From Candidatus Binatia bacterium (GTDB lineage: Bacteria > Methylomirabilota > Methylomirabilia > Rokubacteriales > CSP1-6): 39,827 nucleotides of DNA. Location: NCBI GenBank assembly GCA_035544455.1, contig DATKEI010000078.1, positions 1-39,827 of the forward strand, read 5' to 3'. A program made the translations under genes and the position numbers. The notes beneath the pieces are model-generated. The model saw only the letters and a list, made by a program, of their open reading frames with translations. It did not search any database and had not been told where the DNA came from. The number at the start of each line of letters is the position of its first letter. Positions within the stretch are counted from its first letter, which is position 1. Below are positions 1 to 17,674 of this stretch, in pieces.

Positions 1-40
1 AGGTCGGCCGGCCGTCCGTCGTCGAGGCGCCCGCGCCTCC

Positions 41-68
41 GGAGGGGGCGAGAGGGGCAGGGCGAGGG
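41..68. repeat. Partial GC-rich REP-like arm (GGAGGGGGCGAGAGGGGCAGGGCGAGGG)
   Basis: Resembles the right arm GGGGGAGAGGGCAGGGGTGAGGG of the hairpin at 15323-15381. No complementary left arm is visible inside the window. Confidence 0.35.
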
Positions 69-70
69 CA

Positions 71-268
71 ATGTGCCGACAAAGCGCCGGGCGGGGCGGG
101 GGTCCTCCCCGCGGGACACGCTGTGTCGCGGAGCGCTGCCGGCACGCAATGGGGCCACGAGATGGGTGGTGGGTGGCTCCGGCGATCCGCAGAAGATACG
201 GTCCCACGGGGAGGACCCCCACCCCACCCGGCGCCGCGAGTCGACGAGCTTCTGACTCAGGACACTAG
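71..268 (+). repeat. Long-hairpin MITE-like repeat, copy A (left terminus missing, right terminus CTTCTGACTCAGGACACTAG intact)
   Basis: Aligns by eye with copies at 2380-2504, 5047-5264, 15199-15294 and 9470-9500. The internal arms 84-117 and 201-234 are reverse complements at 31 of 34 positions. The stop codon of the lyase gene (265-267) lies inside the terminal repeat. Confidence 0.8.
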
Positions 269-1227
269 CCGCGCGCGGCCGCCTGCCGCGGGAGCCGCTC
301 GGCCACGCCGTCCGGCGCCGGGTAGCGCCGGTCCCACTTGCCGGCCTTGACGACCTGCCCCGGCAACGGCCGGCCGATGATCTCCTGAACGCGCCGCGAG
401 GTGGCGATCAGCGCGTCGAGGTCGGTCCCGGTCTCGACGCCCATCGCGTGCAGGCAGTGCACGAGATCCTCGGTGCAGACGTTACCGGAGGCGCCAGGAG
501 CGAAGGGGCAACCGCCGAGCCCGCCGATGGACGCGTCGAGGTGGGTCACCCCGCACTCCATCGCGGCCAGGATGTTCGGGATCGCCATGGCGCGGGTGTC
601 GTGCGTGTGCAGGGTCCACTCGACGCCCGGAAAGCGGGGCGTGAGGTGGGCGACGACCCGCGCCACCTGGATCGGATTCGCCATGCCGGTCGTGTCGGCC
701 AGGCCGATCCCGCGGGCGCCGAGATCCACCAGGCGGTCCACGACGGACTCGAGCTGGCCGAGCGGCACCTCCCCCTCGAAGGGGCAGCCGAACGCGCACG
801 ACACGCCCGCGGACACGGGAATGCCGGCGCGACGGGCCACCTCGGCCACCGCGCGCAGCTTGGCGATGGACTCGGCGATGGTCATGTTCACGTTGGCCAG
901 GTTGTGGCTCTGGCTGGCGGAGACCACGGTGTGGATCTCGTCCACTCCCGCCTCGACCGCGCGGACCGCGCCCTTGTCGTTGGGGACGAGGGCCGAGTAC
1001 ACCGTCCCCGGGCGGCGCCGGATGCGGGCCATGACCTCCTCGGCGTCGCGCAGCTGCGGAACCGCCTTGGGGGAGACGAAGGAGGTCACCTCGATTCGCG
1101 GCACGCCGGTGGCGGACAGGCGGTCCACCACCTCGACCTTCATCTCGGTCGGGATGAACTCGGGCTCGATCTGAAAGCCGTCCCGGGTCCCCACCTCGCA
1201 GATGCCGACGCGCGTGGGCAGCTTCAT
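265..1227 (-). CDS. Hydroxymethylglutaryl-CoA lyase (HMGL-like, DRE-TIM aldolase)
   Basis: 320-aa ORF. N-terminal EVGTRDGFQ motif, TLHTHDTRAMA and GGLGGCPFAPGASGNV motifs typical of HMG-CoA lyase. AAGGAG RBS upstream of the ATG at 1227. Confidence 0.9.
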   Translation of the reverse strand: MKLPTRVGICEVGTRDGFQIEPEFIPTEMKVEVVDRLSATGVPRIEVTSFVSPKAVPQLRDAEEVMARIRRRPGTVYSALVPNDKGAVRAVEAGVDEIHTVVSASQSHNLANVNMTIAESIAKLRAVAEVARRAGIPVSAGVSCAFGCPFEGEVPLGQLESVVDRLVDLGARGIGLADTTGMANPIQVARVVAHLTPRFPGVEWTLHTHDTRAMAIPNILAAMECGVTHLDASIGGLGGCPFAPGASGNVCTEDLVHCLHAMGVETGTDLDALIATSRRVQEIIGRPLPGQVVKAGKWDRRYPAPDGVAERLPRQAAARG

Positions 1228-1337
1228 AGCGGGGGTCTCCTTCTCGCCGTGTTGTGCCGGGCCCGCTCACCGTCGATCGCGGCCGAGCACGCGACTTCAC
1301 TCTAGCGCGGCGGGATGCCGATGGCCAGCGCCCCGGT

Positions 1338-2282
1338 CTACGCCGGCGCCGCGAACGTGAAGGTGCTGCCCACCGAGCTCCAGACGACGGCCGGTCCGAG
1401 GCGGGTCCCGAGGGCGACCATGGCCTCCATCCCCGTGCAGTGCTGGGGGACGAGGTAGTCGACGCCCAGCTCCCGGAAGGCATCGACCACCCGCGCGATG
1501 CGCTCCTCGCCGAGTCCGCTCAGGTGGAAGCCCCCCACCACGGCGTGGATTCGCGGCACGCCGGCCACTCGCGCGGCGTGCCGGCAGATGCCGATGATGC
1601 CGCGATGGGAGCACGAGGTCACCACCACCAGGCCGCGGTCGCGGACGTGGGCGACGAGCGTCTGCTCGCCGATGAAGGTGTCCGGGACCACCTGGCCGTC
1701 CCGCTCCACCCGGAGCGAGGCCGGGATGGTCTCGAAGGGCAGGGCCTCGTGCATCTCCCCCGAGAGCATCACGCCCTCGGCCAGCGCCGTCGGTCCGGCG
1801 ACGACGGACACGGCCAGCTCCTGTCTCAAGAGCTCGTCGCGGTCGAGCCGGCCCATGTAGACTCGCTGGCCCTCCCGCTCGTTGTAGCGGGGCAGGAAGT
1901 GGTCGACGCCGGCGTAGAAGGGCAGGCCCGGGCGCAGCAGGTGCCGGTACGTCGAGAGGAAGGTGCGGAGGCCGCCGAAGTGATCCAGGTGGCCGTGGCT
2001 CAGGGCGAGGGCGTCGAGGCGCCGGGGGTCGAGGTCGAGCTCGCGGACGTTGTGGGTGTAACCATCGCCGCTCATGCCCCAGTCGAAGGCGATGCACGAG
2101 GTCTGCCCGCCTCGCGTGACCTCGATCCAGTGCCCGAGGCCGTGCTCGGCGCGCAGCGCCGGCATTTTCCGGGCGCGGGCGTGGGTGAAGCGGCGCGCCA
2201 CCTTCTCGTCCGAGCGCAGGTTGTCGATCGAGTTGTCGACGACGGTGGTGACGGCAATGCGGTCGACGGGGGCGAGCGTCAT
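1338..2282 (-). CDS. MBL-fold metallo-hydrolase (COG1237-like)
   Basis: HGHLDH metal motif. I placed the start at MTLAPVDRIAV (ATG 2280-2282) because the upstream part of the 377-aa track ORF runs through the repeat and is Arg/Ala junk. Confidence 0.8.
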   Translation of the reverse strand: MTLAPVDRIAVTTVVDNSIDNLRSDEKVARRFTHARARKMPALRAEHGLGHWIEVTRGGQTSCIAFDWGMSGDGYTHNVRELDLDPRRLDALALSHGHLDHFGGLRTFLSTYRHLLRPGLPFYAGVDHFLPRYNEREGQRVYMGRLDRDELLRQELAVSVVAGPTALAEGVMLSGEMHEALPFETIPASLRVERDGQVVPDTFIGEQTLVAHVRDRGLVVVTSCSHRGIIGICRHAARVAGVPRIHAVVGGFHLSGLGEERIARVVDAFRELGVDYLVPQHCTGMEAMVALGTRLGPAVVWSSVGSTFTFAAPA

Positions 2283-2356
2283 CCCCGCCACTCTAGCATG
2301 CGCGCCGCCGGCCGCCCGGCCACTGCGCCCCCCGCGCCGGCGGGGCGCCGCCGCCC

Positions 2357-2386
2357 TTGACCGGCCAGGGGCCGCCCGGCTAGTGT
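2357..2386 (+). promoter_or_regulatory. Candidate sigma-70-type promoter TTGACC-N18-TAGTGT
   Basis: Good -35 hexamer within the conserved CCTTGACCGGCCAGGGG box. The -10-like TAGTGT is the first 6 nt of repeat copy B. It lies upstream of the acylase gene. Not validated. Confidence 0.3.
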
Positions 2387-2504
2387 CCTGAGTCAGAAAC
2401 GGGCCGACAAGCGCCGGGGGGCGGGGCCCTTCCCGCGGGACACGCCTGTAACGCGAGAGCGCTGCCGGCACTCAATGGGGCCACGAGAAGCCACGCTCCC
2501 GCGC
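2380..2504 (+). repeat. Long-hairpin MITE-like repeat, copy B (left terminus CTAGTGTCCTGAGTCAGAAA, right arm absent)
   Basis: The left terminus matches the reverse complement of the copy A right terminus at 19 of 20 positions. The interior matches A and C up to AATGGGGCCACGAG, then has an internal deletion and diverges. Confidence 0.75.
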
Positions 2505-2533
2505 CTCCTGGAACGGCCCTGACGGGAGACATC

Positions 2534-4897
2534 ATGAGCGATCTCGGCGGTGGCGTTCCCGGCACCTCCTCGACCGTCCGCGGGCTCGGCGCTCGCGTCG
2601 AGATCTGGCGCGACGGGCTCGGGATCCCTCACGTGCGAGCGGCCTCCACGCGCGATGCGTTCGTCGGCCAGGGCTTCGTCCACGCGCAGGACCGTCTGTG
2701 GCAGATGGAGTACGATCGCCGTCGCGCCTACGGGCGCTGGGCGGAGGTGGCCGGGCCGGATGCCGTCGCGCAGGACGTCCAGATGCGGCGCTTCCGGCTG
2801 GAGGCGAGCGCGCGGGCCGACTACGCCGCCGTGGACGCGGTCACGCGCGACATGCTCGAGGCCTTTGCCGAGGGCGTGAACGCCTTCGGCGCCGGTGCGC
2901 CCGCGCCGGGCGTGGAGTTCCAGCTGGCCGACTTCCGGCCGGAGCCGTGGCAGCCGTGGGACAGCGCCGCCGTGTTCAAGGTGCGTCACATCCTGATGGG
3001 CACCTGGCAAGTCAAGGCGTGGCGGGCTCGCCTGGTGCGCCATCTGGGCGCGGCCCGGGCGGCTGCGCTGTGCCCGGGCACGCAGGGCCACCCGGTCCTG
3101 ATCGTGCCGCCCGGGGCGCTTTTCGAGGGGCCCGACGATCAGGGGGTCGCCGCCGCTCTCGAGGCTCTCACCGCCGCCGAGGCGAGCCTGCCCGCCCTGC
3201 CGGAATGGGAGGTCGGCAGCAACAACTGGGCGCTGTCGGGCCGGTTCACCGTCTCCGGCAAGCCGCTCGTGGCCGGCGATCCCCATCGCCCCCTGGACGT
3301 GCCGTCCGTGTACTACCAGAACCACATCGCCAGCCCGGAGTTCGACGCGATCGGGCTGTCGTTCCCCGGCGTGCCCGGGCTCTCGCACTTCGGCCACAAT
3401 GCGCACGTGGCCTGGTGTGTGACCCACGCCCAGGCCGACTACCAGGACCTGTACGTCGAGCGCTTCGACCGCGACGACCCCGGCCGGTACGAGTTCGAGG
3501 GGCGATGGCGCCCGGCCGAGGTGGCGCGGGAGACCATTTGCGTGCGGGGCGCGGCGCCGGTGCCGATCGACGTCACCGTCACGCACCACGGACCGATCGT
3601 GCTCGGCGATCCTGGCCTCGGCCACGCCATCGCCTTCCGGTACACCGCGACCGCGGCGCCCAACCGGACCTTCGAGGCGTTCCTGCCCATGCTGCGCGCC
3701 CGCTCGGCGGACGAGCTCCGCGCCTCCCAGCGGCCGTGGGTGGACCCCGCCAACAACCTCGTGTATGCCGACGTGCACGGGGCCATCGGGTATCTGACCC
3801 GGGGCGAGGTGCCGCTGCGCGCCACCGCCAACGCGTGGCTGCCCGTCCCGGGCTGGGACGGCGCGCACGAGTGGCAGGGCGCCATTCCCTTCGAGGCGAT
3901 GCCGGCCCTGCGCGATCCCGCCGCCGGTTTCGTGGCCACCGCCAACAGCCGCATCGTCGGCGCCGACTATCCACATCACCTCGGCCTCGACTGGAGCCCC
4001 GACTTCCGGACGCGGCGGCTCGTCGACCGGCTGCGCGGGCTGACCGGCGCGACCGTGGGCGACATGGCGGCGATCCACGCGGACCGGATCTCGATCCCCG
4101 CGCGGGAGATGGTGGCAATCCTGCGCGCTCACGCCGGCGAGATCGCGCGGGCCGGCGAGGGAGCGCCGCCGGCCCCGGGGGCGGGCGGGGCAGTCGCGGC
4201 CGCGCTCGCGCGGCTTTCCGCATGGGACGGCGACATGGACCGCCACCTGGTCGCGCCGACGATCTACAGCGCGTTTCGCGAGCGGCTGATGCGCGACCTC
4301 CTGGAGCCGATGCTCGGGCCCCTGGCCGGGGAGGCCTTCGCCGGCACGCCCCGGGGCGCGGTCGGGCACATGGCCCGGCTTCGCGCGCTGCTCCCCGATC
4401 TGATCCGCGCCGGCGACCGCACCCTCCTCCCCCCGGGCGGCACCTGGCCCGGGGCGCTGGCCCGGGCGCTCGCGGGCGCCGTGACCGCCCTCCGGCAAGC
4501 GCTCGGAGACGACGCGTCCGCCTGGACCTGGGGCCGCGTGCACACGACCGTGCCCGAGCATCCGCTGGCACCCGTGTACCCGGAGTGGGCGGCCCGCCTC
4601 AATCCCCCGCCGGTCGCCATGGGCGGGGATGCCGACACGGTGCACGCCGCCTCCTTCCTGCCCGGAGCGCCGTACGGGGTCAGCTCGACCTCGGTGGCCC
4701 GCTACGTGTTCGACCTCGCCGACTGGGAGCGGAGCGCGTGGGTCGTGCCTCTCGGGGCCTCCGGCCACCCGGGCAGTGCCCACTACGCCGACCAGGGCGC
4801 CGCCTGGGGGGAGGGCCGGCTCTTCCCGATGCGCTATGTGTGGGCGGCGATCGCGCGCGACGCCGAAGCCCACCAGGTCCTCGACCCGGCGTCCTGA
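2534..4897 (+). CDS. Penicillin acylase family protein (Ntn hydrolase, peptidase S45)
   Basis: 787 aa. Motifs WRDGLGIPHV, FVHAQDRLWQME and the autoprocessing site G-SNNWALSG, followed by GDPH. Confidence 0.92.
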   Translation: MSDLGGGVPGTSSTVRGLGARVEIWRDGLGIPHVRAASTRDAFVGQGFVHAQDRLWQMEYDRRRAYGRWAEVAGPDAVAQDVQMRRFRLEASARADYAAVDAVTRDMLEAFAEGVNAFGAGAPAPGVEFQLADFRPEPWQPWDSAAVFKVRHILMGTWQVKAWRARLVRHLGAARAAALCPGTQGHPVLIVPPGALFEGPDDQGVAAALEALTAAEASLPALPEWEVGSNNWALSGRFTVSGKPLVAGDPHRPLDVPSVYYQNHIASPEFDAIGLSFPGVPGLSHFGHNAHVAWCVTHAQADYQDLYVERFDRDDPGRYEFEGRWRPAEVARETICVRGAAPVPIDVTVTHHGPIVLGDPGLGHAIAFRYTATAAPNRTFEAFLPMLRARSADELRASQRPWVDPANNLVYADVHGAIGYLTRGEVPLRATANAWLPVPGWDGAHEWQGAIPFEAMPALRDPAAGFVATANSRIVGADYPHHLGLDWSPDFRTRRLVDRLRGLTGATVGDMAAIHADRISIPAREMVAILRAHAGEIARAGEGAPPAPGAGGAVAAALARLSAWDGDMDRHLVAPTIYSAFRERLMRDLLEPMLGPLAGEAFAGTPRGAVGHMARLRALLPDLIRAGDRTLLPPGGTWPGALARALAGAVTALRQALGDDASAWTWGRVHTTVPEHPLAPVYPEWAARLNPPPVAMGGDADTVHAASFLPGAPYGVSSTSVARYVFDLADWERSAWVVPLGASGHPGSAHYADQGAAWGEGRLFPMRYVWAAIARDAEAHQVLDPAS

Positions 4898-5003
4898 CCC
4901 GGCCCACGCCGTTGCCGTCCCGGGATCGCCGGGACCCCCTCCGCGCCGCGTGGCCACTCCTGCCGGGGGCGGCCGCCCGCTTCGACCCTCCCCGCCCCCG
5001 GCC

Positions 5004-5033
5004 TTGACACGGCCAGCGGCGGGGCGCTAACTC
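5004..5033 (+). promoter_or_regulatory. Candidate promoter TTGACA-N18-TAACTC
   Basis: Perfect -35 within a CCTTGACACGGCCAGCGG box similar to 2355-2371. The -10 is weak. It lies upstream of repeat copy C and the ADH gene. Confidence 0.25.
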
Positions 5034-5046
5034 TCGTCTCGTCCTT

Positions 5047-5264
5047 GGTGTCCCGGGTCAGGGATCGGTCGACACAGCGCCGGGCGAGGCGGAGGGGCCC
5101 TCCCCGCGCGACCCGCCTGTAACGCGGGAGCGTCGCCGGCACTCGATGGGGCCCGGGATGGATGGTGGGTGGCTCTGGCAATCCGCAGAAGCCACGGTCC
5201 CGCGGGGAGGGCCCCCGCCCCACCCGGCGCCGTGAGTCGCCGAACGTTCGACTCGGGACACTGG
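5047..5264 (+). repeat. Long-hairpin MITE-like repeat, copy C (full length, both termini)
   Basis: Left terminus GGTGTCCCGGGTCAG, right terminus CGACTCGGGACACTGG. Internal arms are complementary. It occupies the acylase-ADH intergenic region. Confidence 0.85.
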
Positions 5265-5344
5265 CGCTCTTGCCCTGCGCAGTGCCGTTCGATCAGCGCG
5301 TGGCCCGGTGGCGTGCCCGCGGCCGGCGTCGACAGGAGTGTGAG

Positions 5345-6424
5345 ATGCAAGCTGCCATGTTCCACGGCCCGCACCAGCCGCTGACCATCGAGGACGTCGA
5401 CGTCGACAAGCCCATGGGCCGCGAGGTGCTGGTGCGCACCGTCGCCTCCGGCGTCTGCCACAGCGACCTGCACTTCGTCGACGGCCTCTACCCGTTCCCG
5501 ACCCCCGCCGTTCTCGGCCACGAGGCGGCCGGGATCGTCGAATCCGTGGGTCTGCAGGTGGCGGATCTCAAGCCCGGCGACCATGTCATCGCGTGCTTGT
5601 CCGTCTTCTGCGGCCAGTGCGACTACTGCCTGACCGGCAAGACCCATCTCTGCCAGACGCGGCCGGTGCGCGCCAAGGGCGATCCGCCGAAGCTCTCCTG
5701 GAAGGGGCAACCCGTCAATCAGTTCGCCAACCTGTCCGCGTACGCCGAGAAGATGCTCGTCCACGAGAACGCCCTCGTGAAGATCGCGACCGACATGCCG
5801 CTCGACCGCGCCGCGCTCATCGGCTGCGGGGTCACCACCGGCGTGGGCGCCGTGCTGAACACCGCGCGGATCGAGCCCGGGTCCACGGTCGCCGTCTTCG
5901 GGACCGGCGGTGTCGGGCTTGCCGCCATCCAGGGCGCGCGCATCGCGGGTGCGCGCATGATCATCGCGGTCGACGTGGTGGAGGCGAAGTTCGCCAAGGC
6001 CCGCGAGCTCGGCGCCACTCACGCCGTCAACGCCGCCAGCGGCGATCCCGTCAAGGCCATCCGCGACCTGACGAACGGCGGCGTCGACTACTCGTTCGAG
6101 GCCATCGGCCTCAAGGTCGCCGCCGAGCAGTGTTTCGACTGCATCCGGCCGGGCGGCACCGCCACCGTCATCGGCATGATCCCGGTGGGTCAGAAGATCG
6201 AGCTCGACGGGCCCATGTTCCTGCGCGAGAAGAAGATCCAGGGCTGCAGCATGGGCTCCAACCGCTTCAAGGTCGACATGCCCCGCTACATCGACTTCTA
6301 CCGCCAGGGCCGGCTCAAGCTGGACGAGATGATCACCCGGCGCGGGCGGCTCGAGGACGTCAACGAGGCCTTCCGGGCCATGAAGGCCGGCGAGGTCGCC
6401 CGCACCGTCCTGATGTTCGACTAG
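5345..6424 (+). CDS. Zinc-dependent alcohol dehydrogenase (MDR family)
   Basis: GVCHSDLH and GHEAAGIV catalytic-Zn motifs, CGQCDYCLTGKTHLC structural-Zn loop, GTGGVGL Rossmann motif. The start at ATG 5345 is preceded by AGGAG. The upstream part of the track ORF lies in the repeat. Confidence 0.9.
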   Translation: MQAAMFHGPHQPLTIEDVDVDKPMGREVLVRTVASGVCHSDLHFVDGLYPFPTPAVLGHEAAGIVESVGLQVADLKPGDHVIACLSVFCGQCDYCLTGKTHLCQTRPVRAKGDPPKLSWKGQPVNQFANLSAYAEKMLVHENALVKIATDMPLDRAALIGCGVTTGVGAVLNTARIEPGSTVAVFGTGGVGLAAIQGARIAGARMIIAVDVVEAKFAKARELGATHAVNAASGDPVKAIRDLTNGGVDYSFEAIGLKVAAEQCFDCIRPGGTATVIGMIPVGQKIELDGPMFLREKKIQGCSMGSNRFKVDMPRYIDFYRQGRLKLDEMITRRGRLEDVNEAFRAMKAGEVARTVLMFD

Positions 6425-6468
6425 CCCGGATCGGAGATGTGCCTCGCGGGGAGTGAGAGGAGCGTCGC

Positions 6469-7902
6469 ATGGCCGAGTTCGACACCGTCATCCGCAACGG
6501 AGTGATCGCCACCGCCTCCGATGTCTTCCCGGCCGACGTCGGCATCGCGGGCGGGGTCATCGCCGCGCTGGGGCGGAGCCTGGCGCCCGCGCGCCGCGAG
6601 ATCGACGCGGCCGGCCGTTACGTGCTGCCCGGCGGCATCGACGCCCACTGTCACTTCGACCAGCCCATGCGGGGCGGCGTCACCCTGGCCGACGACTTTC
6701 TCTCCGGCCCGATCTCGGCCGCGCATGGCGGGACGACCACGGTGGTGCCGTTCGCGTGCCAGCAAGCGGGGCAGAGCATCCGGGCGGCGGTCGAGGACTA
6801 CCACCGCCGCGCCGCCGGCAAGCCGGTCATCGACTACGCCTTTCACCTGATCATCTCGGATCCCACGGAGGACGTCCGGCGGCGCGAGCTCCCCGCGCTG
6901 ATCGACGAGGGGTACACCTCGTTCAAGATCTACATGACCTACGAGACCCTCCGGCTCGACGACCGGCAGATCATCTCGGTGCTGGCCCTGGCCCGGCGCG
7001 AAGGGGCCATGGTCATGGTGCATGCCGAGCATTCCGACGGCATCACGTGGCTGACCGCCGAGCTCGAGCGAGCGGGCAAGACTGCGCCGTACTTCCACGC
7101 GCTGTCGCGGCCGGCCGCCGTCGAGCGGGAGGGCGCCCACCGGGCCATCACCATGTCCGAGATCGTGGACGTGCCCATCCTGCTCGTGCACGTCTCCGGT
7201 GGCGAGACCGTCGAGCAGATCCGCGCGGCCCAGGGGCGCGGGCTCAGGATCTACGCCGAGACGTGCCCGCAGTACCTGGTCCTGACCGCCGACCACCTCG
7301 ATGCGCCCGGGTTCGAGGGCGCCAAGTTCGTGTGTAGCCCGCCGCCGCGCGATGCGGAGAGCCAGCGCGCGGTGTGGAACGGCATCACGAGCGGCGTGTT
7401 CCAGGTCATCTCGTCCGACCACGCGGCCTTCAGGTTCGACGGTCCCGCGGGCAAGAAGGCCCATGGCGAGGACGCCCCCTTTACCCGCATCCCGAACGGC
7501 GTGCCCGGCGTGGAGACGCGCCTGCCCATCTTCTTCTCCGAGGGCGTGGCCAAGGGGCGCATCGACCTCCCGACCTTCGTGGCCCTGACCGCGACGAATC
7601 CCGCCCGCATCTACGGGCTCTACCCGCGCAAGGGAACCATCGCGGTGGGCGCGGACGCCGACCTTGCTATCTGGAACCCGGACCGCGAGGTGGTGATCAC
7701 CAACGACCTCCTGCACCACGACTGCGACTACACTCCCTACGAGGGCATGGCGGTACGCGGGTGGCCGGAGGTGGTGATGTCGCGGGGAGAGATCGTCGTG
7801 GAGGAGGGCAAGCTCCTGGCCGAGCCCGGGCAGGGGCGCTTCCTGCGCTGCGACCGCCCATCGCCGGCGCGGCCGCGCGCGCTCGGACCCGCGTCCGCCT
7901 GA
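6469..7902 (+). CDS. Dihydropyrimidinase / D-hydantoinase (cyclic amidohydrolase)
   Basis: 477 aa. Motifs GGIDAHCHFD, SFKIYM (carbamylated Lys region), VHAE, LLVHVS and SSDHAAF. GAGGAG RBS. Confidence 0.9.
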   Translation: MAEFDTVIRNGVIATASDVFPADVGIAGGVIAALGRSLAPARREIDAAGRYVLPGGIDAHCHFDQPMRGGVTLADDFLSGPISAAHGGTTTVVPFACQQAGQSIRAAVEDYHRRAAGKPVIDYAFHLIISDPTEDVRRRELPALIDEGYTSFKIYMTYETLRLDDRQIISVLALARREGAMVMVHAEHSDGITWLTAELERAGKTAPYFHALSRPAAVEREGAHRAITMSEIVDVPILLVHVSGGETVEQIRAAQGRGLRIYAETCPQYLVLTADHLDAPGFEGAKFVCSPPPRDAESQRAVWNGITSGVFQVISSDHAAFRFDGPAGKKAHGEDAPFTRIPNGVPGVETRLPIFFSEGVAKGRIDLPTFVALTATNPARIYGLYPRKGTIAVGADADLAIWNPDREVVITNDLLHHDCDYTPYEGMAVRGWPEVVMSRGEIVVEEGKLLAEPGQGRFLRCDRPSPARPRALGPASA

Positions 7903-8197
7903 TCCGGTTGCGTCCTGCCCCCGGCGCGGTGCTCCCCCGAGGACCTGCTGCCGGGTCGCCCGGCCCTCGAGCAGATGTTGTCGAGGTCGACCGGGGAAGG
8001 ATCGGCTCCGCCCCCACCCTGAGTGCGATTCAAGTACGAGGAGCGGCGGCTGGCCGGTCGCGAGTCTCCTGTCACCAACCCTGCTATCGGAGGGTTGCAA
8101 TCGGCTTCGAGCGGCGTCGCGCCCTGGACAGTTGGAGCACGGGACACTGGCTAGCGCGCACCGCGGCGCTCCCCGCCGGTCCCGGGCGGGAACGAGC

Positions 8198-9340
8198 ATG
8201 GCGTATCATTCCAGGATGCGACTCTCCTCCCTGCGGTGGTGGCGGATCGGCCTGCTGGGCACCCTCGGCATTGCCCTCGCCGCGGCGCCCGGGAGCGCCC
8301 GCCCGGTGACCTACGTCATTGCGTTCGACGGCGTTTTAGTCCGGGAGCCCTACGGCGTCCCGCTGCCGCCCGAGCTGGCTCACCTCGATCTACCCGCTCC
8401 CGTCGATGTCAAGGAGCCGAACCTGTCGCCGTCCAGCGGCGTCGTTCGGAGCGGAACACCTAGCCCCGGGGTAAGGTACGGGAAGAACGTGGACATTTCC
8501 CGCGAGGGGAAGGCGCTCGACCTCGCCCTCGAGCAGGGCATCCTCGATCGCGAGGGTCAATGGTACGTGTTCCAGGGTATGCGTCTCGGCACCCGGAGGG
8601 CGGGGATCAAGCAGGTCCTCCGGAGGCACCCCGAAGTCCTCGCGGTCCTGGAGGCCGAGCTCGCATCCGGGGGCGCCTCTGCGCCTGCCGCCGCCCTGCG
8701 CGGGCCATCGCCCCATTCCGTGTACGCCTTCGCCCCCGGGAAGATGGTCCGCGCGAACCCGAGCTTCGTCGAGAAGGGATTCGTGGTGGAGGCGTTCTGG
8801 GCGGTCCGGATCGGGTCAGCCGACGCGTACTTCGCGCGCGCGCACTTCCATCCCCCGGATCTGGCCACGGGCTTCGAGGCCCAGCACCTGGGCAACGCAC
8901 GCGAGCTCCACGGACTGTTCATCCGGTCGGCGGACGGGCGGCCGTTCGGGGTGAAGAGCCTGCGCTATCGCGTCACCCGCAACCGCCAGATCCCGACGCG
9001 CTCGATCAGCATCGCCGGATTCACCAACTTCTCGGTGGAGGTCCTGCTGGCCCGGTCGTTCGATCCGCGCCGGCCGGTGCGCGGGCAGTTCGAGGGCTTC
9101 CCCGTCGGCCTTGCCGTGGGCAACGATCCGACGCTCCCCTGGGCAACCCTGCACGTCTTCGGGTTCGAGCTGGTCACCGAGATCTACATCGCCAGCTCGG
9201 CGAGCGTGGACATCGACGACATCGTCCTCGTCCGCAATGAGGTCGACGCGCCGCCGGACGTCCCGGCCGAGTCGGAGGACGTGCCGGCCGAATCGGAGGA
9301 CGCCCCGGGGTCCCACGGCCCGGGGCAGGCGCCGCGGTAG
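8198..9340 (+). CDS. Hypothetical protein with a hydrophobic N-terminus, a RecA C-terminal-domain-like segment and an unknown ~200-aa C-terminal domain
   Basis: ATG at 8198, alternative ATG at 8216 (MRLSSLRWWRIGLLGTLGIALAAAPGSA looks like a signal peptide). The segment YGKNVDISREGKALDLALEQGILDREGQWYVFQGMRLG...HPEVLAVLEAEL matches the RecA C-terminal signature. The C-terminus has a DVPAESE repeat. Confidence 0.6.
   Translation: MAYHSRMRLSSLRWWRIGLLGTLGIALAAAPGSARPVTYVIAFDGVLVREPYGVPLPPELAHLDLPAPVDVKEPNLSPSSGVVRSGTPSPGVRYGKNVDISREGKALDLALEQGILDREGQWYVFQGMRLGTRRAGIKQVLRRHPEVLAVLEAELASGGASAPAAALRGPSPHSVYAFAPGKMVRANPSFVEKGFVVEAFWAVRIGSADAYFARAHFHPPDLATGFEAQHLGNARELHGLFIRSADGRPFGVKSLRYRVTRNRQIPTRSISIAGFTNFSVEVLLARSFDPRRPVRGQFEGFPVGLAVGNDPTLPWATLHVFGFELVTEIYIASSASVDIDDIVLVRNEVDAPPDVPAESEDVPAESEDAPGSHGPGQAPR
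9257..9298 (+). repeat. In-frame 21-bp tandem repeat x2 (plus a partial third) encoding DVPAESE
   Basis: GACGTCCCGGCCGAGTCGGAG / GACGTGCCGGCCGAATCGGAG, read directly. Confidence 0.85.
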
Positions 9341-9469
9341 CGTCGCTCCACCATCGCTGATGGACTGTCCGCGCTGTCGCCACGCCAACCCCGCCCCGGT
9401 CCGCTTCTGCCCGCATGCGGCCGCCGCCTGCGGGCGGCCTGGCGGGGCCGACCGCCCGGAGTGCTCGGG

Positions 9470-9500
9470 CCCCCGCCCCGCCTGCGCTTTGTCGGCACAT
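9470..9500 (-). repeat. Fragment (~31 nt) of the MITE-like repeat, copy D
   Basis: The reverse complement ATGTGCCGACAAAGCGCAGGCGGGGCGGGGG matches copy A positions 71-101 with one mismatch, then diverges. Confidence 0.6.
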
Positions 9501-9531
9501 CGCCCGCCGGCGGCGGGCGGAGCGCGCCCGA

Positions 9532-10704
9532 TCAGTAGGAGCGGGGCATGCCGAGGACGTGCTCCCCGACGTAGGCCATCACGAGGTTGTTGTTGATCGG
9601 CGCGGTGCGGTAGAGGCGCGCTTCCCGGAACTTGCGCTCGATGTCGTACTCCTCGGCAAAGCCGTAGCCGCCGTGGCAGTCGATGCAGGCGTCCCCGGCC
9701 TGGATGGCGGCCTCGGAGGCGAGGAACTTGGCCATGTTGGCCTCGGGTCCGCAGGGGATGCCGGCGTCGAAGAGGCGGGCCGCCTTGGTGCGCATGAGGT
9801 CGGCGGCCTCGATCGCCATGTGGGCGCGGGCGATGGGGAACTGCACGCCCTGGTTGGTCCCGATTGGCTTGCCGAAGATGACGCGCTGACTCGCGTAGGC
9901 GACGGCCTTCTCGATGAACCAGCGCGCATCGCCCAGCGAGTCCGAGGCAACGAGGATGCGCTCGGCGTTCATGCCGTCGAGGATGTACGAGAACCCCTTG
10001 CCCTCCTGGCCGATGAGGCTGTCGGCGGGGATCTGCATGTTGTCGAAGAAGAGCGCGCTGGTGGAGTGGTTCATCATCATCCGCAGGGGCCGGACCTCGA
10101 GGCCCTTGCCCGCGAGCTCCCGGATGTCGATGAGGAACACGCTCAGCCCGTCCGTCTTCCGCTTGACCTGGTCGACCGGCGTGGTGCGGGCGAGGAGCAG
10201 CATGAGGTCGGACTGGAGCACGCGCGAGATGAACATCTTCTGCCCGTTGACCACATAGCGGTCGCCCGTGCGCTGGGCGGTGGTCTGCAGCTTGGTCGTG
10301 TCCGAGCCCGCGTTGGGCTCGGTCACGCCGAAGGCCTGCAGGCGCAGCTCCCCGGTGGCGATCTTGGGCAGGTACGCCCGCTTCTGCGCCTCCGAGCCGT
10401 GCCGGAGCACGGTGCCCATGATGTACATCTGGGCGTGGCAGGCCCCCGCGTTCCCGCCGGAGCGGTTGATCTCCTCGAGGATGATGGCGGCCTCGATCAT
10501 CCCGAGCCCCGCCCCGCCGTACTCCTGGGGGATGAGGGCAGCCAGGTAGCCGGCCTTGGTCAGCTCGTTGACGAAGGCCTCGGGGTACTCGCGCCGCGTG
10601 TCGAGGTCGCGCCAGTACTCGGCCGGGTACTGCTTGCACAGCTCGTACACCGCGGCCCGGAGGGCCCGCTGGTCATCGCTCAGCACGAACGTCATGTCCG
10701 CCAT
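9532..10704 (-). CDS. Acyl-CoA dehydrogenase
   Basis: 390 aa. Motifs FGVTEPNAGSD, YVVNGQKMFIS and C-terminal EIYEG-like QGGYGF region. GGGAGGGA RBS. Confidence 0.93.
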   Translation of the reverse strand: MADMTFVLSDDQRALRAAVYELCKQYPAEYWRDLDTRREYPEAFVNELTKAGYLAALIPQEYGGAGLGMIEAAIILEEINRSGGNAGACHAQMYIMGTVLRHGSEAQKRAYLPKIATGELRLQAFGVTEPNAGSDTTKLQTTAQRTGDRYVVNGQKMFISRVLQSDLMLLLARTTPVDQVKRKTDGLSVFLIDIRELAGKGLEVRPLRMMMNHSTSALFFDNMQIPADSLIGQEGKGFSYILDGMNAERILVASDSLGDARWFIEKAVAYASQRVIFGKPIGTNQGVQFPIARAHMAIEAADLMRTKAARLFDAGIPCGPEANMAKFLASEAAIQAGDACIDCHGGYGFAEEYDIERKFREARLYRTAPINNNLVMAYVGEHVLGMPRSY

Positions 10705-10720
10705 GTCGCGCTCCCTCCCG

Positions 10721-11515
10721 CTATCGGCCCTGGAACCGGGGCTTGCGTTTCTCGTTGAAGGCGCGCACGCCCTCCAGGCGGTCGTCGGTGGTCACCGTGT
10801 TGTTGTAGGCCTCGATGGCGAGGGCCATGGCGGTCCCGAGGTCGGTCTCGCTGCCCCAGGCCACCGCCTTCTTCGCCTGGCGCACGGCCACCGGTCCGTT
10901 CTCTGCGATGGTGGCGGCGATATCGAGCGCCCGCGCCCGCGCCTGGCCGGCGGGGACCACGTGGTTCACGAGGCCGATGGCCCGGGCCTCGGCGGCGGGG
11001 ACGCGGCGGCCGGTGAAGATCATCTCCTTGGCCATGGGCGCGCCCACGATGCGGGGCAGGAGCTGGGTGCCGCCGATGCCCGGGAAGATCCCGCGCGTGA
11101 CCTCCGGCACGGCGAAGACCGCGGTCTCGCCGGCCACGATGAAGTCCGACAGGACGGCCAGCTCGCAGCCGCCGCCGAGGGCGAAGCCCTCCACTGCCGC
11201 GATCACCGGCATCGGGCAGCGCAGCAGGCGGAAGGCGCCCTCCTCGAAGATGACGTGCTGGGCGCGCCAGGCCTCATCGGTCATGCCCTCGCGCTCCTTC
11301 AGGTCGCCCCCCACGCAGAAGGCCCTCTCGCCGGCGCCGGCGAAGACCACCGCGCGCGCGGCTCGATCCCAGAAGAGCGCCTCGAAGCAGCGCGCGAGGT
11401 CCTCGCCCATGGCCGTGTTCATGGCGTTGAGGGCCTCGGGCCGGTGCATCTCGACGGTCACGACGTGCCCGTCCGGCGAGCGCTCGACGCGCAGGTGCCG
11501 GTAGTCGTCGGTCAT
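10721..11515 (-). CDS. Enoyl-CoA hydratase/isomerase (crotonase family)
   Basis: 264 aa starting MTDDYRHLRVE. Motifs FCVGGDLKE and GFALGGGCELA. The rest of the 645-aa track ORF is a read-through of the upstream gene in another frame. Confidence 0.92.
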   Translation of the reverse strand: MTDDYRHLRVERSPDGHVVTVEMHRPEALNAMNTAMGEDLARCFEALFWDRAARAVVFAGAGERAFCVGGDLKEREGMTDEAWRAQHVIFEEGAFRLLRCPMPVIAAVEGFALGGGCELAVLSDFIVAGETAVFAVPEVTRGIFPGIGGTQLLPRIVGAPMAKEMIFTGRRVPAAEARAIGLVNHVVPAGQARARALDIAATIAENGPVAVRQAKKAVAWGSETDLGTAMALAIEAYNNTVTTDDRLEGVRAFNEKRKPRFQGR

Positions 11516-12720
11516 GGCGCGCCGCCGGCGGTCTGGACGACCTTGCGGGCGACCAGGTCCTCGATGCCGGTCCGGTCGTAGCCCAGCTCGGCGAGGACCT
11601 CGGCGGAGTGCTCGCCGAGGAGGGGCGGGACGCGCCGCCCCGCGCCGCGCTCGCCGTCCCAGCGCACGGGCATGGCTACCTCGCGGTAGCTGGCCAGGCG
11701 CGGATGGGGGGCGGGCGCGAACATGCCGCTCGCTTGCGTCTGTGGCTCCGCGGCCACGCGGTCGACGGTCAGGATCGGCGCGCAGGGGACGCCGGCGCGC
11801 TCGAGCCGCTCCAGGACGTCGGACGCGGCGAGACCGCGGGTCACCTTGGCGAGTAGCTCGAACAGCGCCGCGCGGTGCCGCACGCGCGAGGGGTTGTCGG
11901 CAAAGCGGGGGTCGCGGGCCAGGCCCGGCACGGAGAGCGCCTCCGCGGCCCGGCCGAAGAGGCTGTCCGAGCCGGCGGCGATCATGACCCAGGCCTCGCG
12001 CGTCGGGAACGCCTCGTAGGGGACGATCATGGCCGTGCCCGACCCGTGCGCCTGCGGCGTCTCGCCGGTGGCGAAGTACTGGTTGGCCGGCACGGCCGTC
12101 CAGGCGAGCGCCGTCTCGTAGAGCGCGGTGGTGACATGCTGGCCGGCGCCAGTCCGGTCGCGCTCGCGGAGGGCGCCGAGGATGGCCATCACCGCCCACA
12201 TCCCCGTCCCCATGTCCACGATGGAGATCGGCACCCTCACCGGCGGCTGTCCGGGGTGTCCGGTGATGGACATGATCCCCCCCGAGGCTTGCATGAGCGG
12301 ATCGTAGCCCGGGCGGTCGCGGAGCGGGCCCTCGGTGCCGTAGGCGGTGACGGAGCAGTAGATCAGCCGCCCGTTCAGGGCGCGGGCCCGGTCCCAGCCG
12401 AGGCCGAGCTCGTCGGCCACGCCCGCCCGCAGCGACTGCACGAAGACGTCGGCGCGGGCGATCAGCCGCTCCGCCACGGTCCGGCCCTCGGGCGCCTTGA
12501 TGTCGACGGCGAGGCTCCGCTTGTTCCGGTTCATTGCCATGAAGGTGGCGCTCTCGTCTCCCCAGTAGGGCGGAGCCCACGCGCGCGCGTCGTCCCCGCG
12601 CCCGGGGCGCTCGATCTTGACGATCTCCGCCCCCATGTCGCCGAGGATCTGCGTGCAATAGGGACCGGCTACGTTCTGGGTGAGGTCGGCGACCAAGAGC
12701 CCGGCGAGGGGGGCGGTCAT
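11512..12720 (-). CDS. Family III CoA-transferase (CaiB/BaiF)
   Basis: 402 aa starting MTAPLAGLLVADLTQNVAGPYCT. Motifs ERPGRGDD and NRNKRS. Its stop overlaps the hydratase start (ATGA at 11512-11515). Confidence 0.92.
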   Translation of the reverse strand: MTAPLAGLLVADLTQNVAGPYCTQILGDMGAEIVKIERPGRGDDARAWAPPYWGDESATFMAMNRNKRSLAVDIKAPEGRTVAERLIARADVFVQSLRAGVADELGLGWDRARALNGRLIYCSVTAYGTEGPLRDRPGYDPLMQASGGIMSITGHPGQPPVRVPISIVDMGTGMWAVMAILGALRERDRTGAGQHVTTALYETALAWTAVPANQYFATGETPQAHGSGTAMIVPYEAFPTREAWVMIAAGSDSLFGRAAEALSVPGLARDPRFADNPSRVRHRAALFELLAKVTRGLAASDVLERLERAGVPCAPILTVDRVAAEPQTQASGMFAPAPHPRLASYREVAMPVRWDGERGAGRRVPPLLGEHSAEVLAELGYDRTGIEDLVARKVVQTAGGAP

Positions 12721-12834
12721 GAGAAGCCGATTATAGCCTTGCTCGCCCGCTTCATTCGGAAGCCGCATCTTTCTTGTCTTGGGATCAATCGCGGGGGAGG
12801 GTAGGCTTGGGGTGCAGCGAGGACCCTGACGCCG

Positions 12835-15195
12835 ATGCTCGACGACCTGCTGTGGGCCCTCGTCCTCGTCGCCATCCTCGTCCTCGTCGTGCGCGGCCTC
12901 GGCGGGATCAAGTCGTCGCCACCAGCTGCGGATCCGCTGGCCGCCCGCCTCGCCGCCGTCGAGGACGAGCTGCGGGATGTGAAGGCCCAGCTCCGCCTGC
13001 TCGTCGAGCGCGTGTGGTTCCTGGAGCAGGGGCGCGGGGCGGGTGGGCCGCAGTCCACCGTGGACGATCGAGCGGCCGCGGGTTCCGAGCCCGCCGATGT
13101 GGGTGGCCTCGTGCCGGAAGCCGCCGGGCCGGGCAGTCCGGACGAGATCTCGCCGGCGGTGGCCGACGTACCCCACGAGATGTCGCGCACCCCGCTGGGG
13201 CCCCCGTGGCCTCCGGCCGCGCCCGGCAACGTCCCGCCGGGCGTCCCCGCGCCCAGGGCGGCCCGCGACCTCGAGCAGCGGATCGGAGCGCGCTGGACCA
13301 CCTGGGTCGGGGTCCTCGCCATCCTCTTTGCCCTCAGCTTCTTCCTCCGCTGGGCGTTCGAGCGCCAGCTCGTCGGTGAGCTCGCCCGCTGCCTCGTGGG
13401 CGTGGCCGTGGGCGCGGCCCTCCTGGTGGCCGGCCAGCGCCTGCACCGGCGGCGCGACCTGCCCTACCTGAGCGAGGGACTGAGCGGCGGAGGCCTGGGC
13501 GCGCTGTACCTCTCCCTGTACGCCGCCCACGTCTTCTACGGGTTCATCGGCTCAGGCGCCGCCTTCTATCTCATGTTCCTCGTCACCCTCGCCGGCGCGG
13601 CGGTGGCGGTGAACACCCACCGCCAGGTGACGGCGATGCTCGCGCTCATCGGCGGCCTCCTCACCCCGATCCTGCTCGCGAGCGGGCGGCCCAACGAGCG
13701 TGTGCTGCTCGGATACGTGCTTGTCCTGGACTGCCTGGCCCTCGCCGTCGCCCGTTACCGGAGCTGGCCGGCCCTGGGGTACGTGGCGTGGGCGGGCAGC
13801 GCGCTCCTGATCATGCCGGGGATCGAGAGGAGACCGGAGCGCGCTGTCCTGGCCGGCCGGCTGATCCTGCTCACCGCCATCTGGGCCGTGTTCCTGGCCC
13901 TGCCCCTGGTCCGCGAGCTGGTCGAGCGCCGCCGGGAGCGCGAGCTGGACCAGGTCCTGGTCGTGCTGAACGCCGCCGGCTATTTCTACGCGCTCTACGC
14001 GACCCTCTCGTGGTGGGCTCCGGGCGCGCAGGGGCCGTGTGCCCTCGGCCTTGCCGCCGTGTACTGGCTGGTGGCCATCCTCTGCCGGCGCCGCGTGCCC
14101 GACGACGCCCTGAGCGCGCCCACGCATGTCGGGGTGGCCCTGACCTTCCTCACCGTGGGGATCGGGCTTGCCCTCCGGGGGCCGTGGATCACCCTGGCGT
14201 GGGCTGCCCAGGGGCTGGCGCTGCTCGCGGTGGCGCCGCGCGCGGCGAGCCCGGTCGCGAGCTGGGGCGCGATGGCGGCGCTGGCCCTGGCGGCGGGCCG
14301 CGTCATCTGGGTCGATCCGTCCTGGGACCCGCCCGTGACCAGGGTCTGGAACGCGACCTTCCTCGCGCATCTGCTGGTGGTGACGGCGCTGGCGATCGGA
14401 GGCTCCTGGGCCCGGCGTCTCCGGCCCGGCCAGCCGCCCGGTCTCGGCGCCGAGCGTGCTCGCGACGCGCTGTGGCTCGCCAGCGCCCTCGTGCTGGCCG
14501 CGCTCCTGTGGCGGGAGCCCACCGGCCTCTGGCCGGCCGTGCTGCTCTCGATGGAGCTGATCGCCGTGGGCTGGCTCGGGCGTGTCGCGCAATCGCCGGC
14601 GTTCCTGGTGGCGACGCCGCTGCTGGCTGCCGCCGTGCTTGCCCGCATCCTCGGCGCGGACGCCCCGCTTGCCCGGCGCGCGGCGGCCCGCCTCGTCAAC
14701 GCTCCGCTCCTGGTGCGAATGGGGGCCTGCGTCGCCATGGCGCTGGCCGGCCAGAGCCTGTCCCGCGCCGGCGCCGGCCCGGCCTGGCTCGCGATGAGCC
14801 GCCTGCTCTCGTGCGGCGCCGCCGTCCTGCTCCTCGCCGTGCTCAGCGCCGGCTGGGTTGCCCACCAGGATGTCGCGCGCGCTGCCGCCCGCCGCGCCGG
14901 CGACTTCGTGGGCGCCGAGGAGATCCGCTGGCGCATGCAGGTCGGGCTCTCCGTGCTCTGGACGATCTTCGCCTCCGCGGCGCTCGTCTGGGGCTTCGCC
15001 CGGTCGCTTCCCGCCCTCCGCTACGGCGCCCTCGCTCTGCTCGGCGTCGTGATCGCGAAGGTCTCCGTGGTCGACCTCGCCGCCGTCCACACCGGCTACC
15101 GCATCGTCTCGTTCCTCGTCCTCGGCCTGGTCCTCCTCGGGGTCTCCTACCTCTACCAGCGTCGGCGCAACATCGACGGTGCCGCCGGCGGCTGA
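12835..15195 (+). CDS. Polytopic membrane protein, DUF2339-like
   Basis: 786 aa. N-terminal TM, then a coiled-coil-like LAARLAAVEDELRDVKAQLRLL, then roughly 20 hydrophobic segments. The family assignment is from memory of that architecture. Confidence 0.75.
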   Translation: MLDDLLWALVLVAILVLVVRGLGGIKSSPPAADPLAARLAAVEDELRDVKAQLRLLVERVWFLEQGRGAGGPQSTVDDRAAAGSEPADVGGLVPEAAGPGSPDEISPAVADVPHEMSRTPLGPPWPPAAPGNVPPGVPAPRAARDLEQRIGARWTTWVGVLAILFALSFFLRWAFERQLVGELARCLVGVAVGAALLVAGQRLHRRRDLPYLSEGLSGGGLGALYLSLYAAHVFYGFIGSGAAFYLMFLVTLAGAAVAVNTHRQVTAMLALIGGLLTPILLASGRPNERVLLGYVLVLDCLALAVARYRSWPALGYVAWAGSALLIMPGIERRPERAVLAGRLILLTAIWAVFLALPLVRELVERRRERELDQVLVVLNAAGYFYALYATLSWWAPGAQGPCALGLAAVYWLVAILCRRRVPDDALSAPTHVGVALTFLTVGIGLALRGPWITLAWAAQGLALLAVAPRAASPVASWGAMAALALAAGRVIWVDPSWDPPVTRVWNATFLAHLLVVTALAIGGSWARRLRPGQPPGLGAERARDALWLASALVLAALLWREPTGLWPAVLLSMELIAVGWLGRVAQSPAFLVATPLLAAAVLARILGADAPLARRAAARLVNAPLLVRMGACVAMALAGQSLSRAGAGPAWLAMSRLLSCGAAVLLLAVLSAGWVAHQDVARAAARRAGDFVGAEEIRWRMQVGLSVLWTIFASAALVWGFARSLPALRYGALALLGVVIAKVSVVDLAAVHTGYRIVSFLVLGLVLLGVSYLYQRRRNIDGAAGG

Positions 15196-15198
15196 TGA

Positions 15199-15294
15199 CC
15201 TGAGTCAGAGATGTGCCGACAGAGCACCGGGCGGGGGAGGACCCCCACCCCACCCGGCGCCGCGAGCCGACGAACGTCTGACTCCGGACACTGG
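15199..15294 (+). repeat. MITE-like repeat, copy E (short, both termini, centre deleted)
   Basis: CCTGAGTCAGAGATGTGCCGACAGAGC...GTCTGACTCCGGACACTGG. The arms fold directly onto each other around an AGGA loop. It begins 4 nt after the DUF2339 stop. Confidence 0.8.
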
Positions 15295-15322
15295 CCCGGA
15301 CTCTATGTGAACCAGACGCCCA

Positions 15323-15381
15323 CCCTCACCCCAACCCTCTCCCTCTCCGAGCCCCGAAGGGGGAGAGGGCAGGGGTGAGGG
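15323..15381. repeat. REP-like GC-rich bipartite hairpin
   Basis: CCCTCACCCC-AA-CCCTCTCCC ... GGGAGAGGG-CA-GGGGTGAGGG. 10+9 bp complementary arms, read directly. Confidence 0.8.
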
Positions 15382-15430
15382 GGCCCGGGCCAGCAGGAGG
15401 AGGAGAACGCGACATGATGCCGTCACCCCC

Positions 15431-15961
15431 GTGCTGCCGATCCTCCTCGCCCTCGCCACCACCACCGCCGCCCAGCCCGGCGCAAGACCCGCCCCGGCAG
15501 CGGAGGGCCAGACGCTCTCGGCCCGGGCCCGCCTCGCCGGCGCGCGGGGCGAGCCCGTCGGCGAGGTCGCGCTGAGGCAGACGCCTCACGGCGTGCTCCT
15601 CACCGTGTCGCTCACCGGAGTGCCGCCCGGCGAGCGCGCCTTCCACATCCACGCCGCCGGCCGGTGCGAGCCCACCTTTGCCGCCGCCGGCGGCCACTTC
15701 AATCCCGGCGACCGGCAGCACGGTATCGCGAATCCCCGCGGCATGCACGCCGGGGACCTCCCCAACCTCCATGTGCCCGACAGCGGGCGGCTCACCGTGG
15801 AGATCCTGGCCCACGCGGTCACCCTCGAGCCCGGCCGGCCCGGCAGCCTGCTCGGCGGCGAGGGCACCGCCCTCGTCATCCACGCCGGGCCCGACGACCA
15901 CCGCACCGATCCCGCCGGCAACGCCGGCGATCGCATCGCCTGCGGGGTGGTGAGGCGATGA
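15431..15961 (+). CDS. sodC: Cu/Zn superoxide dismutase (periplasmic)
   Basis: Motifs FHIHAAGRCE, GGHFNP, HAGDLPNL, VIHAGPDD and GNAGDRIACGVV. The start is GTG 15431, but see the finding about an out-of-frame SD+ATG at 15414. Confidence 0.88.
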   Translation: MLPILLALATTTAAQPGARPAPAAEGQTLSARARLAGARGEPVGEVALRQTPHGVLLTVSLTGVPPGERAFHIHAAGRCEPTFAAAGGHFNPGDRQHGIANPRGMHAGDLPNLHVPDSGRLTVEILAHAVTLEPGRPGSLLGGEGTALVIHAGPDDHRTDPAGNAGDRIACGVVRR

Positions 15962-16099
15962 GCGCCTGACCTGGGCCGGCCGTCACCCGTGGCATACTCG
16001 GGCGGTGACCGGCACCGCGATCCCGCATCCGCGGCCGCAGCGCCCGCCGCGCCTCCCGGCCGGCGCGGAGCGGACCGGGCAGCCCCCCGGGCGCCCTCG

Positions 16100-17389: not shown

Positions 17390-17602
17390 CCGCTCCGGGC
17401 CGGCTCGGAGAGGCGGTCGGTGCGGAGGAGGGCAGCGGCGACCGAGTGGCGCTCGGTCCCGGGTGAAGGTCATGCTGGACGAGAGCCTCTGGGAGCCCTC
17501 CTGGAGCGAGACCTCACGGGCTACCTGGCTGTCGCGACCGAGCGGGGTCTGCGCGTCAGGTGACGCCCGCGCCCGGGCCTGCCGGGAGGGCTGGCTGCCC
17601 AT

Positions 17603-17622
17603 CGTGCCCGGAGGCGGGCACG
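17603..17622. terminator. GC hairpin CGTGCCC-ggaggc-GGGCACG in a convergent intergenic region
   Basis: 7-bp stem about 53 nt past the stop of the minus-strand activator gene. No U-tract. Confidence 0.2.
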
Positions 17623-17674
17623 CCACCCGGACCCGGCAGCAGGTGGGCGGCCGCGGGGCGGTCGAGCAGGTGGG

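Follow-up and report, generated by a model that had tools for sequence, protein, structure and literature searches.

A GC-rich long-hairpin repeat family of an uncultured soil lineage is very probably an IS630/IS870-type MITE inserted at the TA of CTAG

Insertion sequences (ISs) of the IS630/ISY100 kind transpose by cut-and-paste into the dinucleotide TA, which is duplicated in the process, and in the case of ISY100 the transposase alone excises the element via double-strand breaks and integrates it at TA (PMC2170065). In IS870 from Agrobacterium vitis the ORF lacks a stop codon and is closed by a TAG from the CTAG target, according to the account of Fournier 1993 that is given in PMC13630536. 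Non-coding relatives are represented by RUP, the repeat unit of pneumococcus, a TA-targeting MITE that has been attributed to IS630-Spn1 (PMC2229807). The repeat family analyzed here was found in a window of 39,827 bp, a whole contig with 73% GC, and it resembles RUP in being small and non-coding, in having termini that match an IS630-family IS, in its insertion at TA and in its many intergenic copies (PMC2229807). It differs from RUP, which is 107 bp long and present in ~108 copies in an AT-rich Firmicute, in that the element is ~216 bp with ~80% GC, forms a near-perfect hairpin, prefers CTAG stop codons and belongs to an uncultured soil lineage. The likeness to IS870 concerns the full-length ISs of the partner type described below, which show the TA duplication inside CTAG and the target-derived TAG; unlike IS870 the elements of the window are non-coding derivatives, and the group of ISs sharing their terminus spans many phyla and is likened to IS870 by arrangement and not by sequence comparison.

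We consider the family to be an IS630/IS870-type MITE that uses a transposase encoded elsewhere and whose copies are decaying relics in CTAG, and we put the probability of this reading at about 0.9. Each defining feature of an IS630-derived MITE that could be tested is present: the terminal repeats match those of an IS630-family IS, TA is duplicated at the target, the element is small (216 bp) and non-coding and occurs in many dispersed copies with diverse flanks, and one site is occupied in one strain and empty in another. The family is apparently an undescribed one of a well-known kind, and a literature search for the terminus sequence, or for MITEs in Rokubacteria or this phylum, gave nothing specific.

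Searching the window with the terminus CYAGTGTCCYGAGTCAGA and allowing up to 3 mismatches gave five matches where 0.14 would be expected, and the same copies were recovered by repeat detection, MAFFT and nhmmer, which confirms the repeat family proposed in the initial annotation. In the window it has four copies (A to D) and one fragment (E), and none of the five is intact (Table 1). With its two flanking TAs the intact form measures 216 bp and reads TA-GTGTCCTGAGTCAGA...TCTGACTCNGGACAC-TA, where hyphens mark the element boundaries (in short form TA-GTGTCCTGAGTCAGAAG for the flanking TA and terminus), and the whole element, with ~80% GC, is almost one perfect hairpin.

Table 1 Copies of the repeat family, a possible solo end and associated stop codons, with positions in the window.
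Feature	Position	Strand	State or context
Copy A	71..268	+	Right terminus only; left terminal repeat missing
Copy A, stop codon	266-267 (TA)	-	Stop of HMG-CoA-lyase-like gene; TA + terminal base = TAG
Copy B	2380..~2489	+	Left terminus, left arm and centre; right half lost
Copy C	5046..5265	+	Full length; termini and both flanking TAs decayed (TA>TG)
ADH stop CTAG	6421..6424	+	No full element in the window
Possible solo right end CGGGACACTGG	8140..8150	+	Exact 11-mer, then CTAG
Fragment E	9467..9505	-	Sub-terminal piece + part of left arm; no terminus
Copy D	15193..15295	+	Centre-deleted, 101 bp; left terminus decayed to TGATGACC
Copy D, stop codon	15193-15195		TGA stop of DUF2339 gene overlapped by decayed left end TGATGACC
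L115b, stop codon			Stop of ADH
L133, stop codon			Stop of 491-codon ORF

The initial annotation had five copies sharing their termini. This holds for the left end of copy B and the right end of copy A and, in decayed form, for both ends of copy C and the left end of copy D, but fragment E carries no terminus. Its coordinates needed adjustment in most cases: copy B begins at 2380 as proposed and ends short of 2504, copy C is full length with boundaries one base outside the proposed 5047-5264, copy D is centre-deleted as described, has 101 bp instead of ~96 bp and starts upstream of 15199, and the fragment exceeds its former limits of 9470-9500 on both sides. For the possible solo end the exact match covers 11 nt and lies one base to the right of 8139-8149, and past these 11 nt the sequence shows no similarity to the family. 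The confinement of the family to the first 15.3 kb of the window was borne out, as nhmmer found no copy farther on.

The right end of copy A reads ...TTCTGACTCAGGACAC-TA-g. The left end of copy B is perfect (cTA-GTGTCCTGAGTCAGA) and lies 45 nt upstream of a penicillin-amidase-family gene (ATG at 2534). Copy C, located between the amidase gene and a Zn-ADH gene (ATG at 5345), has the ends TG-GTGTCCCGGGTCAGG ... CGACTCGGGACAC-TG, and each of its strands folds into a single long hairpin (folding z-scores -5.8 and -7.3). Fragment E is found downstream of an acyl-CoA dehydrogenase gene. Exact database matches were absent for the amidase and acyl-CoA dehydrogenase proteins. Upstream of copies B and C we observed a box CCTTGAC(N)CGGCCAG(G/C)GG (2352-2371 and 5001-5022) resembling a -35 sequence, with TTGACC or TTGACA followed after 18 nt by TAGTGT or TAACTC; the candidate -10 of copy B would be made of the CTAG junction and the beginning of the element. 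This box does not belong to the MITE, since it is absent upstream of the intact copy L129 described below.

The termini connect the family to ISs outside the window. When the 16-mer AGTGTCCNGAGTCAGA was scanned in one genome per prokaryotic species, it was found in at least 113 genome loci from many phyla, including Acidobacteriota, Actinomycetota, Myxococcota and Methylomirabilota. Paired inverted termini bound elements of 1,144-1,172 bp in five of the loci listed and MITEs of 159-280 bp in nine of them, and the flanks are mostly of the form cTA-G...C-TAg. The long elements contain a single ORF of 362 aa with HTH and DDE_3 domains, scoring 267-293 bits against the NCBIfam model NF033545 for IS630 family transposases (cut-off 100), and a transposase adjoins the terminus in 25 of the 113 loci listed; a homologue search with the transposase gave 8,000 matches. 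The ORF of each of the five full-length ISs stays open to the end of the element, ...SDSGH, and is then closed by a TAG that is made up of the duplicated TA and the flanking G. The ends of the window family are identical to the IS ends over the 16-nt terminus and similar over ~23-33 nt. BLAST of the element interior against the 113 terminus-bearing loci gave no match, which indicates that the same terminal repeats have been joined to different fillers in different lineages. As a separate observation, a locus labelled Candidatus Methylomirabilis oxygeniifera (L015, 1-76) carries the right terminus TTTCTGACTCAGGACAC-TAg on another small hairpin element, ccctccccc...gggggaggg, cut by the contig end; it represents another filler on the same terminal repeats within the same phylum.

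An IS630 transposase was found neither in the window nor in the related loci examined. The proposal of non-autonomous MITE-like elements in a window free of transposases was thus sustained, and it can now be narrowed to an IS630/IS870-type MITE targeting the TA of CTAG. We infer an active partner transposase in this lineage.

Copies proved very numerous in related loci and soil metagenomes, so that the absence of further copies, which the initial annotation had named as grounds for refuting the family, was clearly not borne out. Eight more were obtained, from six metagenome loci (L128-L133) and two strain contigs (L114 and L115); the strain contigs encode an ADH protein identical to that of the window, and the six metagenome loci came from a scan with an exact 25-mer from the right arm, by which they are biased to conserved arms. 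L129 is intact and reads gcTA-GTGTCCTGAGTCAGAAATGTGCC...TTCTGACTCGGGACAC-TAgc, 216 bp including the flanking TAs. Flanks of the TA...TA type are seen at L129 and L133, TA is present at the single visible end of copies A, B and L115b, and TG, a decayed TA, is found at copies C and D.

To these come four soil metagenomes that contain the organism (flank depth ~6-22), which were mapped onto copies C, D and A. Between 59 and 411 contigs per run were obtained, with 71-411 per metagenome carrying the element with diverse flanks, and over the element the summed depth climbs to 17,075-19,340, up to ~1,000x that of the flanks, a figure that is community-wide and hence an upper bound. The missing terminus CTAGTGTCCTGAGTCAGA can be read from the loose ends on the left side of copy A, and those on the right are diverse, as expected for many insertion sites. 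Taken with five copies in 40 kb, the metagenome depth suggests that a genome has hundreds of copies. The ADH of the window shares a 90%-identity cluster with a protein labelled by its source as from a Methylomirabilota bacterium, and going by this label the lineage is probably one of Methylomirabilota/Rokubacteria-like soil bacteria. The family appears to be confined to a narrower lineage than the phylum, since no copy and no terminus was found in twelve non-syntenic Methylomirabilota loci with ADH relatives from the 90% cluster (L116-L127, ~150 kb). In three of these loci (L124, L125 and L126) the ADH paralogue is followed by an acyl-CoA thioesterase-like gene that is called with 127 aa and has ~450 nt uncalled behind it, while the same gene is 288 aa in L122, L123 and L127; a frameshift or an insertion could be the cause, and the site holds no copy of the MITE family.

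The target sequence is scarce in this GC-rich DNA. From base composition 96 CTAG and 723 TA would be expected in the window, but only 10 CTAG (~10-fold depleted) and 266 TA (~2.7-fold depleted) are present. Seven of the ten CTAG sites are within the first 8.5 kb. Of the ten, several lie at gene ends and serve as stop codons, two are element boundaries (265 and 2380), one (6421) carries an element in another strain and one (8151) follows the putative solo end. Four copies (A, D, L115b and L133) lie exactly on the stop codons of ORFs with GC3 values of 0.93-0.95. The element starts with G, so that ...TA-G rebuilds a TAG, and the claim that one copy supplies the stop of the lyase gene was found to be correct for copy A, the minus-strand TAG at 265-267 consisting of the target TA and the terminal G. 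Copy D has TGA where intact copies have the TAG junction, and the decayed terminus thus kept the stop codon through two base changes. The availability of CTAG can explain both the location of copies at gene ends and in leaders and their clustering in the first 15.3 kb, as a matter of target availability and not of local function.

Comparison of strains gives a view of insertion and decay. The ADH stop reads GACTAGCCC in the window, and in L115 it reads GAC TA-GTGTGCTGAGTCAGA... (also given as GAC TA-GTGTGCTGAGTCAGAAATGTGCC...), where a copy of the family with 94% identity to copy A starts exactly at this TA. In this comparison of an occupied with an empty site the left junction alone is visible, because the L115 contig ends inside the element. 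In L114 (1421-1432) the ADH stop reads CTAGCTAG, which may be an excision footprint (TA-G/C-TA) or equally a slippage duplication. Downstream of the ADH stop in the window (6431-6456), TCGGAGATGTGCC matches the element at 11 of 13 positions and CGCGGGGAG at 9 of 9, and these short matches at 6425-6460 may be the remains of an older, almost fully deleted copy. The site of copy C is occupied in all three strains (window, L114 and L115), with internal deletions of 30 bp in L114 and ~140 bp in L115, and metagenome contigs show distinct centre deletions skipping 114-120, 76 and 47 nt. The variety of these deletions indicates that copy D and other centre-deleted forms originate in situ and on repeated occasions, which is the behaviour to be expected of a long palindrome. 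In old copies most changes of the termini run from AT to GC, including five of five changes in the left end of copy C. Joints of the empty sites for copies C and D were looked for in the four metagenomes, and none was found.

A scheme for the family can be proposed in which the transposition chemistry is borrowed from studies of ISY100/IS630, with ISY100/Tc1-mariner supplying the mechanism for a family that is known here from its sequence alone. The termini are inverted repeats of ~24-35 bp, probably taken from an IS630-family IS of the IS870-like kind, and the filler is a lineage-specific, GC-rich palindrome making the element one long hairpin. A transposase from elsewhere would bind the termini, cut out the element and paste it into a TA, preferably inside CTAG. 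The TA would be duplicated on insertion, and with a G at the start and a C at the end of the element CTAG would be rebuilt on both sides, so that an element landing on a TAG stop should leave the protein unchanged. After insertion the AT-rich termini drift towards GC and the palindrome acquires deletions and truncations, and all five copies of the window are decayed relics of this kind.

The initial annotation had left room for structured RNAs, alone or in addition to mobile elements, and the hairpin indeed shows features that could be read in this way. In copy A the arms pair at 31 of 34 positions with C opposite A in all three mismatches, as confirmed by hand and in the alignment, and the double change reported between copies A and C, T-A to C-G, was recovered at columns 53/168. 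RNAalifold on nine copies gave 47 pairs in which two arm pairs, columns 45/174 and 53/168, switch from C-G to T-A via C-A intermediates, and on the minus strand all six transition-type arm mismatches, as well as one mismatch that is constant, would become G-U. An RNA family, structured or cis-regulatory, selected on its minus-strand transcript would account for this pattern, as well as for the family sequences in one metatranscriptome (92 contigs) and for pair 103/215, which is C-A in at least ~47% of the metagenome copies by depth. The 92 contigs carry no strand, however, and could be DNA carry-over, and 73% of the depth has C at position 103 and 74% has A at its partner 215, making C-A, which is not a pair, the commonest state there. 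Within the arm helix of 33 pairs, 26 never vary, two show double changes and five depart by mismatch alone (nine copies, few of them independent), and the covariation score was reached in 21 of 500 shuffles and the double-change count in 120 of 500, with an unfavourable alifold covariation term (+3.35). Five independent mismatch events all of one type have a p of ~0.03-0.06 only. The minus strand folds better in seven of nine copies, mostly by no more than 3 kcal/mol, and the plus strand in the other two, and it is the plus strand that is sense with the flanking gene in four copies and the minus strand in two. Rfam 15 gave no match, either at the gathering threshold on the window or at E<=1 on 4950-5350. 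Compensatory changes do occur in the arms, but they are few and do not establish an RNA function; with no Rfam match, shuffle controls that were not exceeded, no consistent difference in folding energy between the strands and both orientations, a structured-RNA role is unsupported, and we find it very unlikely that the element is primarily an RNA family. An intrinsic terminator consists of a GC-rich stem followed by a U-tract. A terminator scan of positions 1-16000 gave two sites against 2.5 expected, with only an incidental 6-bp stem inside copy A, and the lack of a U-tract together with this chance-level result led us to reject the element as an intrinsic terminator.

It could also be that the family is a MITE whose inner hairpin is itself under selection, either as a DNA cruciform for the transposase or as an mRNA 3'-end stabiliser or terminator exapted by the host. 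The arms diverge less from the consensus (2.7%) than the centre (11.5%) and the termini (~15-20%), also when G/C sites alone are counted (3.0%, 8.5% and 10.6%; p ~1e-4), metagenome depth over the arms is 3-5x that over the centre or termini, and copies are located directly after stop codons. On the other hand, most of the excess change in the termini reflects AT>GC drift, the genome having 73% GC, and L128-L133 were recovered via the exact right-arm 25-mer, and when the comparison at G/C sites is made on the window copies and L114, which were not found by an arm pattern, arms and centre are alike (4.4% and 4.7%, with 11.5% for the termini). Composition and ascertainment explain most of the arm conservation, although neutral decay alone does not fully predict the lesser divergence of the arms. 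What is left are the perfect 34-nt left arms beside ~20% diverged centres in the subfamily copies L128 and L130, by which the hairpin may matter, a view to which we attach little weight. Against selection on the hairpin we also note that arms have been deleted or truncated in copies B, D, E and L115a with no visible consequence, that no U-tract follows the hairpin and the terminator scan was at chance level, and that both gene orientations occur. We regard a selected inner hairpin as unlikely overall, and it seems just as improbable that the 34-bp GC arms are a selected module, be it a cruciform aiding end-pairing by the transposase or a transcript-end structure at stop codons. Such a module would account for arms that persist across subfamilies with ~20% different centres and decayed termini, and for mismatches that are without exception of the kind giving G-U on one strand. 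REP and BIME repeats are palindromes of 20-40 bp with a GTAG/CGTC head that make no target duplication and are moved by RAYT, a tyrosine transposase of the IS200/IS605-like type. A REP/BIME-type palindrome moved by RAYT, or a local duplication, would equally give palindromic, GC-rich, intergenic repeats in high copy, but the element has ~216 bp and not 20-40 bp, its terminal repeats are identical to those of IS630-type ISs and its flanks are TA, and the many different flanks in metagenomes exclude local duplication. The REP/RAYT candidate was rejected on the IS630-type termini and TA flanks, and either origin is hardly conceivable beside the IS630/IS870-type MITE.

As an IS630/IS870-type MITE the family makes up a large and apparently undescribed part of the intergenic DNA in this lineage. 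It breaks short-read assemblies, as seen from contigs that end in the element, and it may mislead the annotation of gene ends, starts and leaders. The G...C ends, the TA of CTAG and the rebuilt TAG stops add another clear example of a "safe-site" arrangement, and unrelated MITE fillers have arisen between the IS870-like terminal repeats in many phyla; the known workings of such elements are left as they are.

At the right end of copy D we observed a second, unrelated high-copy repeat (15295-15381), which abuts the element and has a hairpin of the form CCCTCACCCC..CCCTCTCCC...GGGAGAGGG..GGGGTGAGG. Its metagenome depth rises to 6,460 against 5-16 in the flanks, and other copies are preceded by CTAG-CCCGGAYYATGCGTGAACC. 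This repeat may be a TA/CTAG-targeting element that was inserted at a CTAG rebuilt by copy D.
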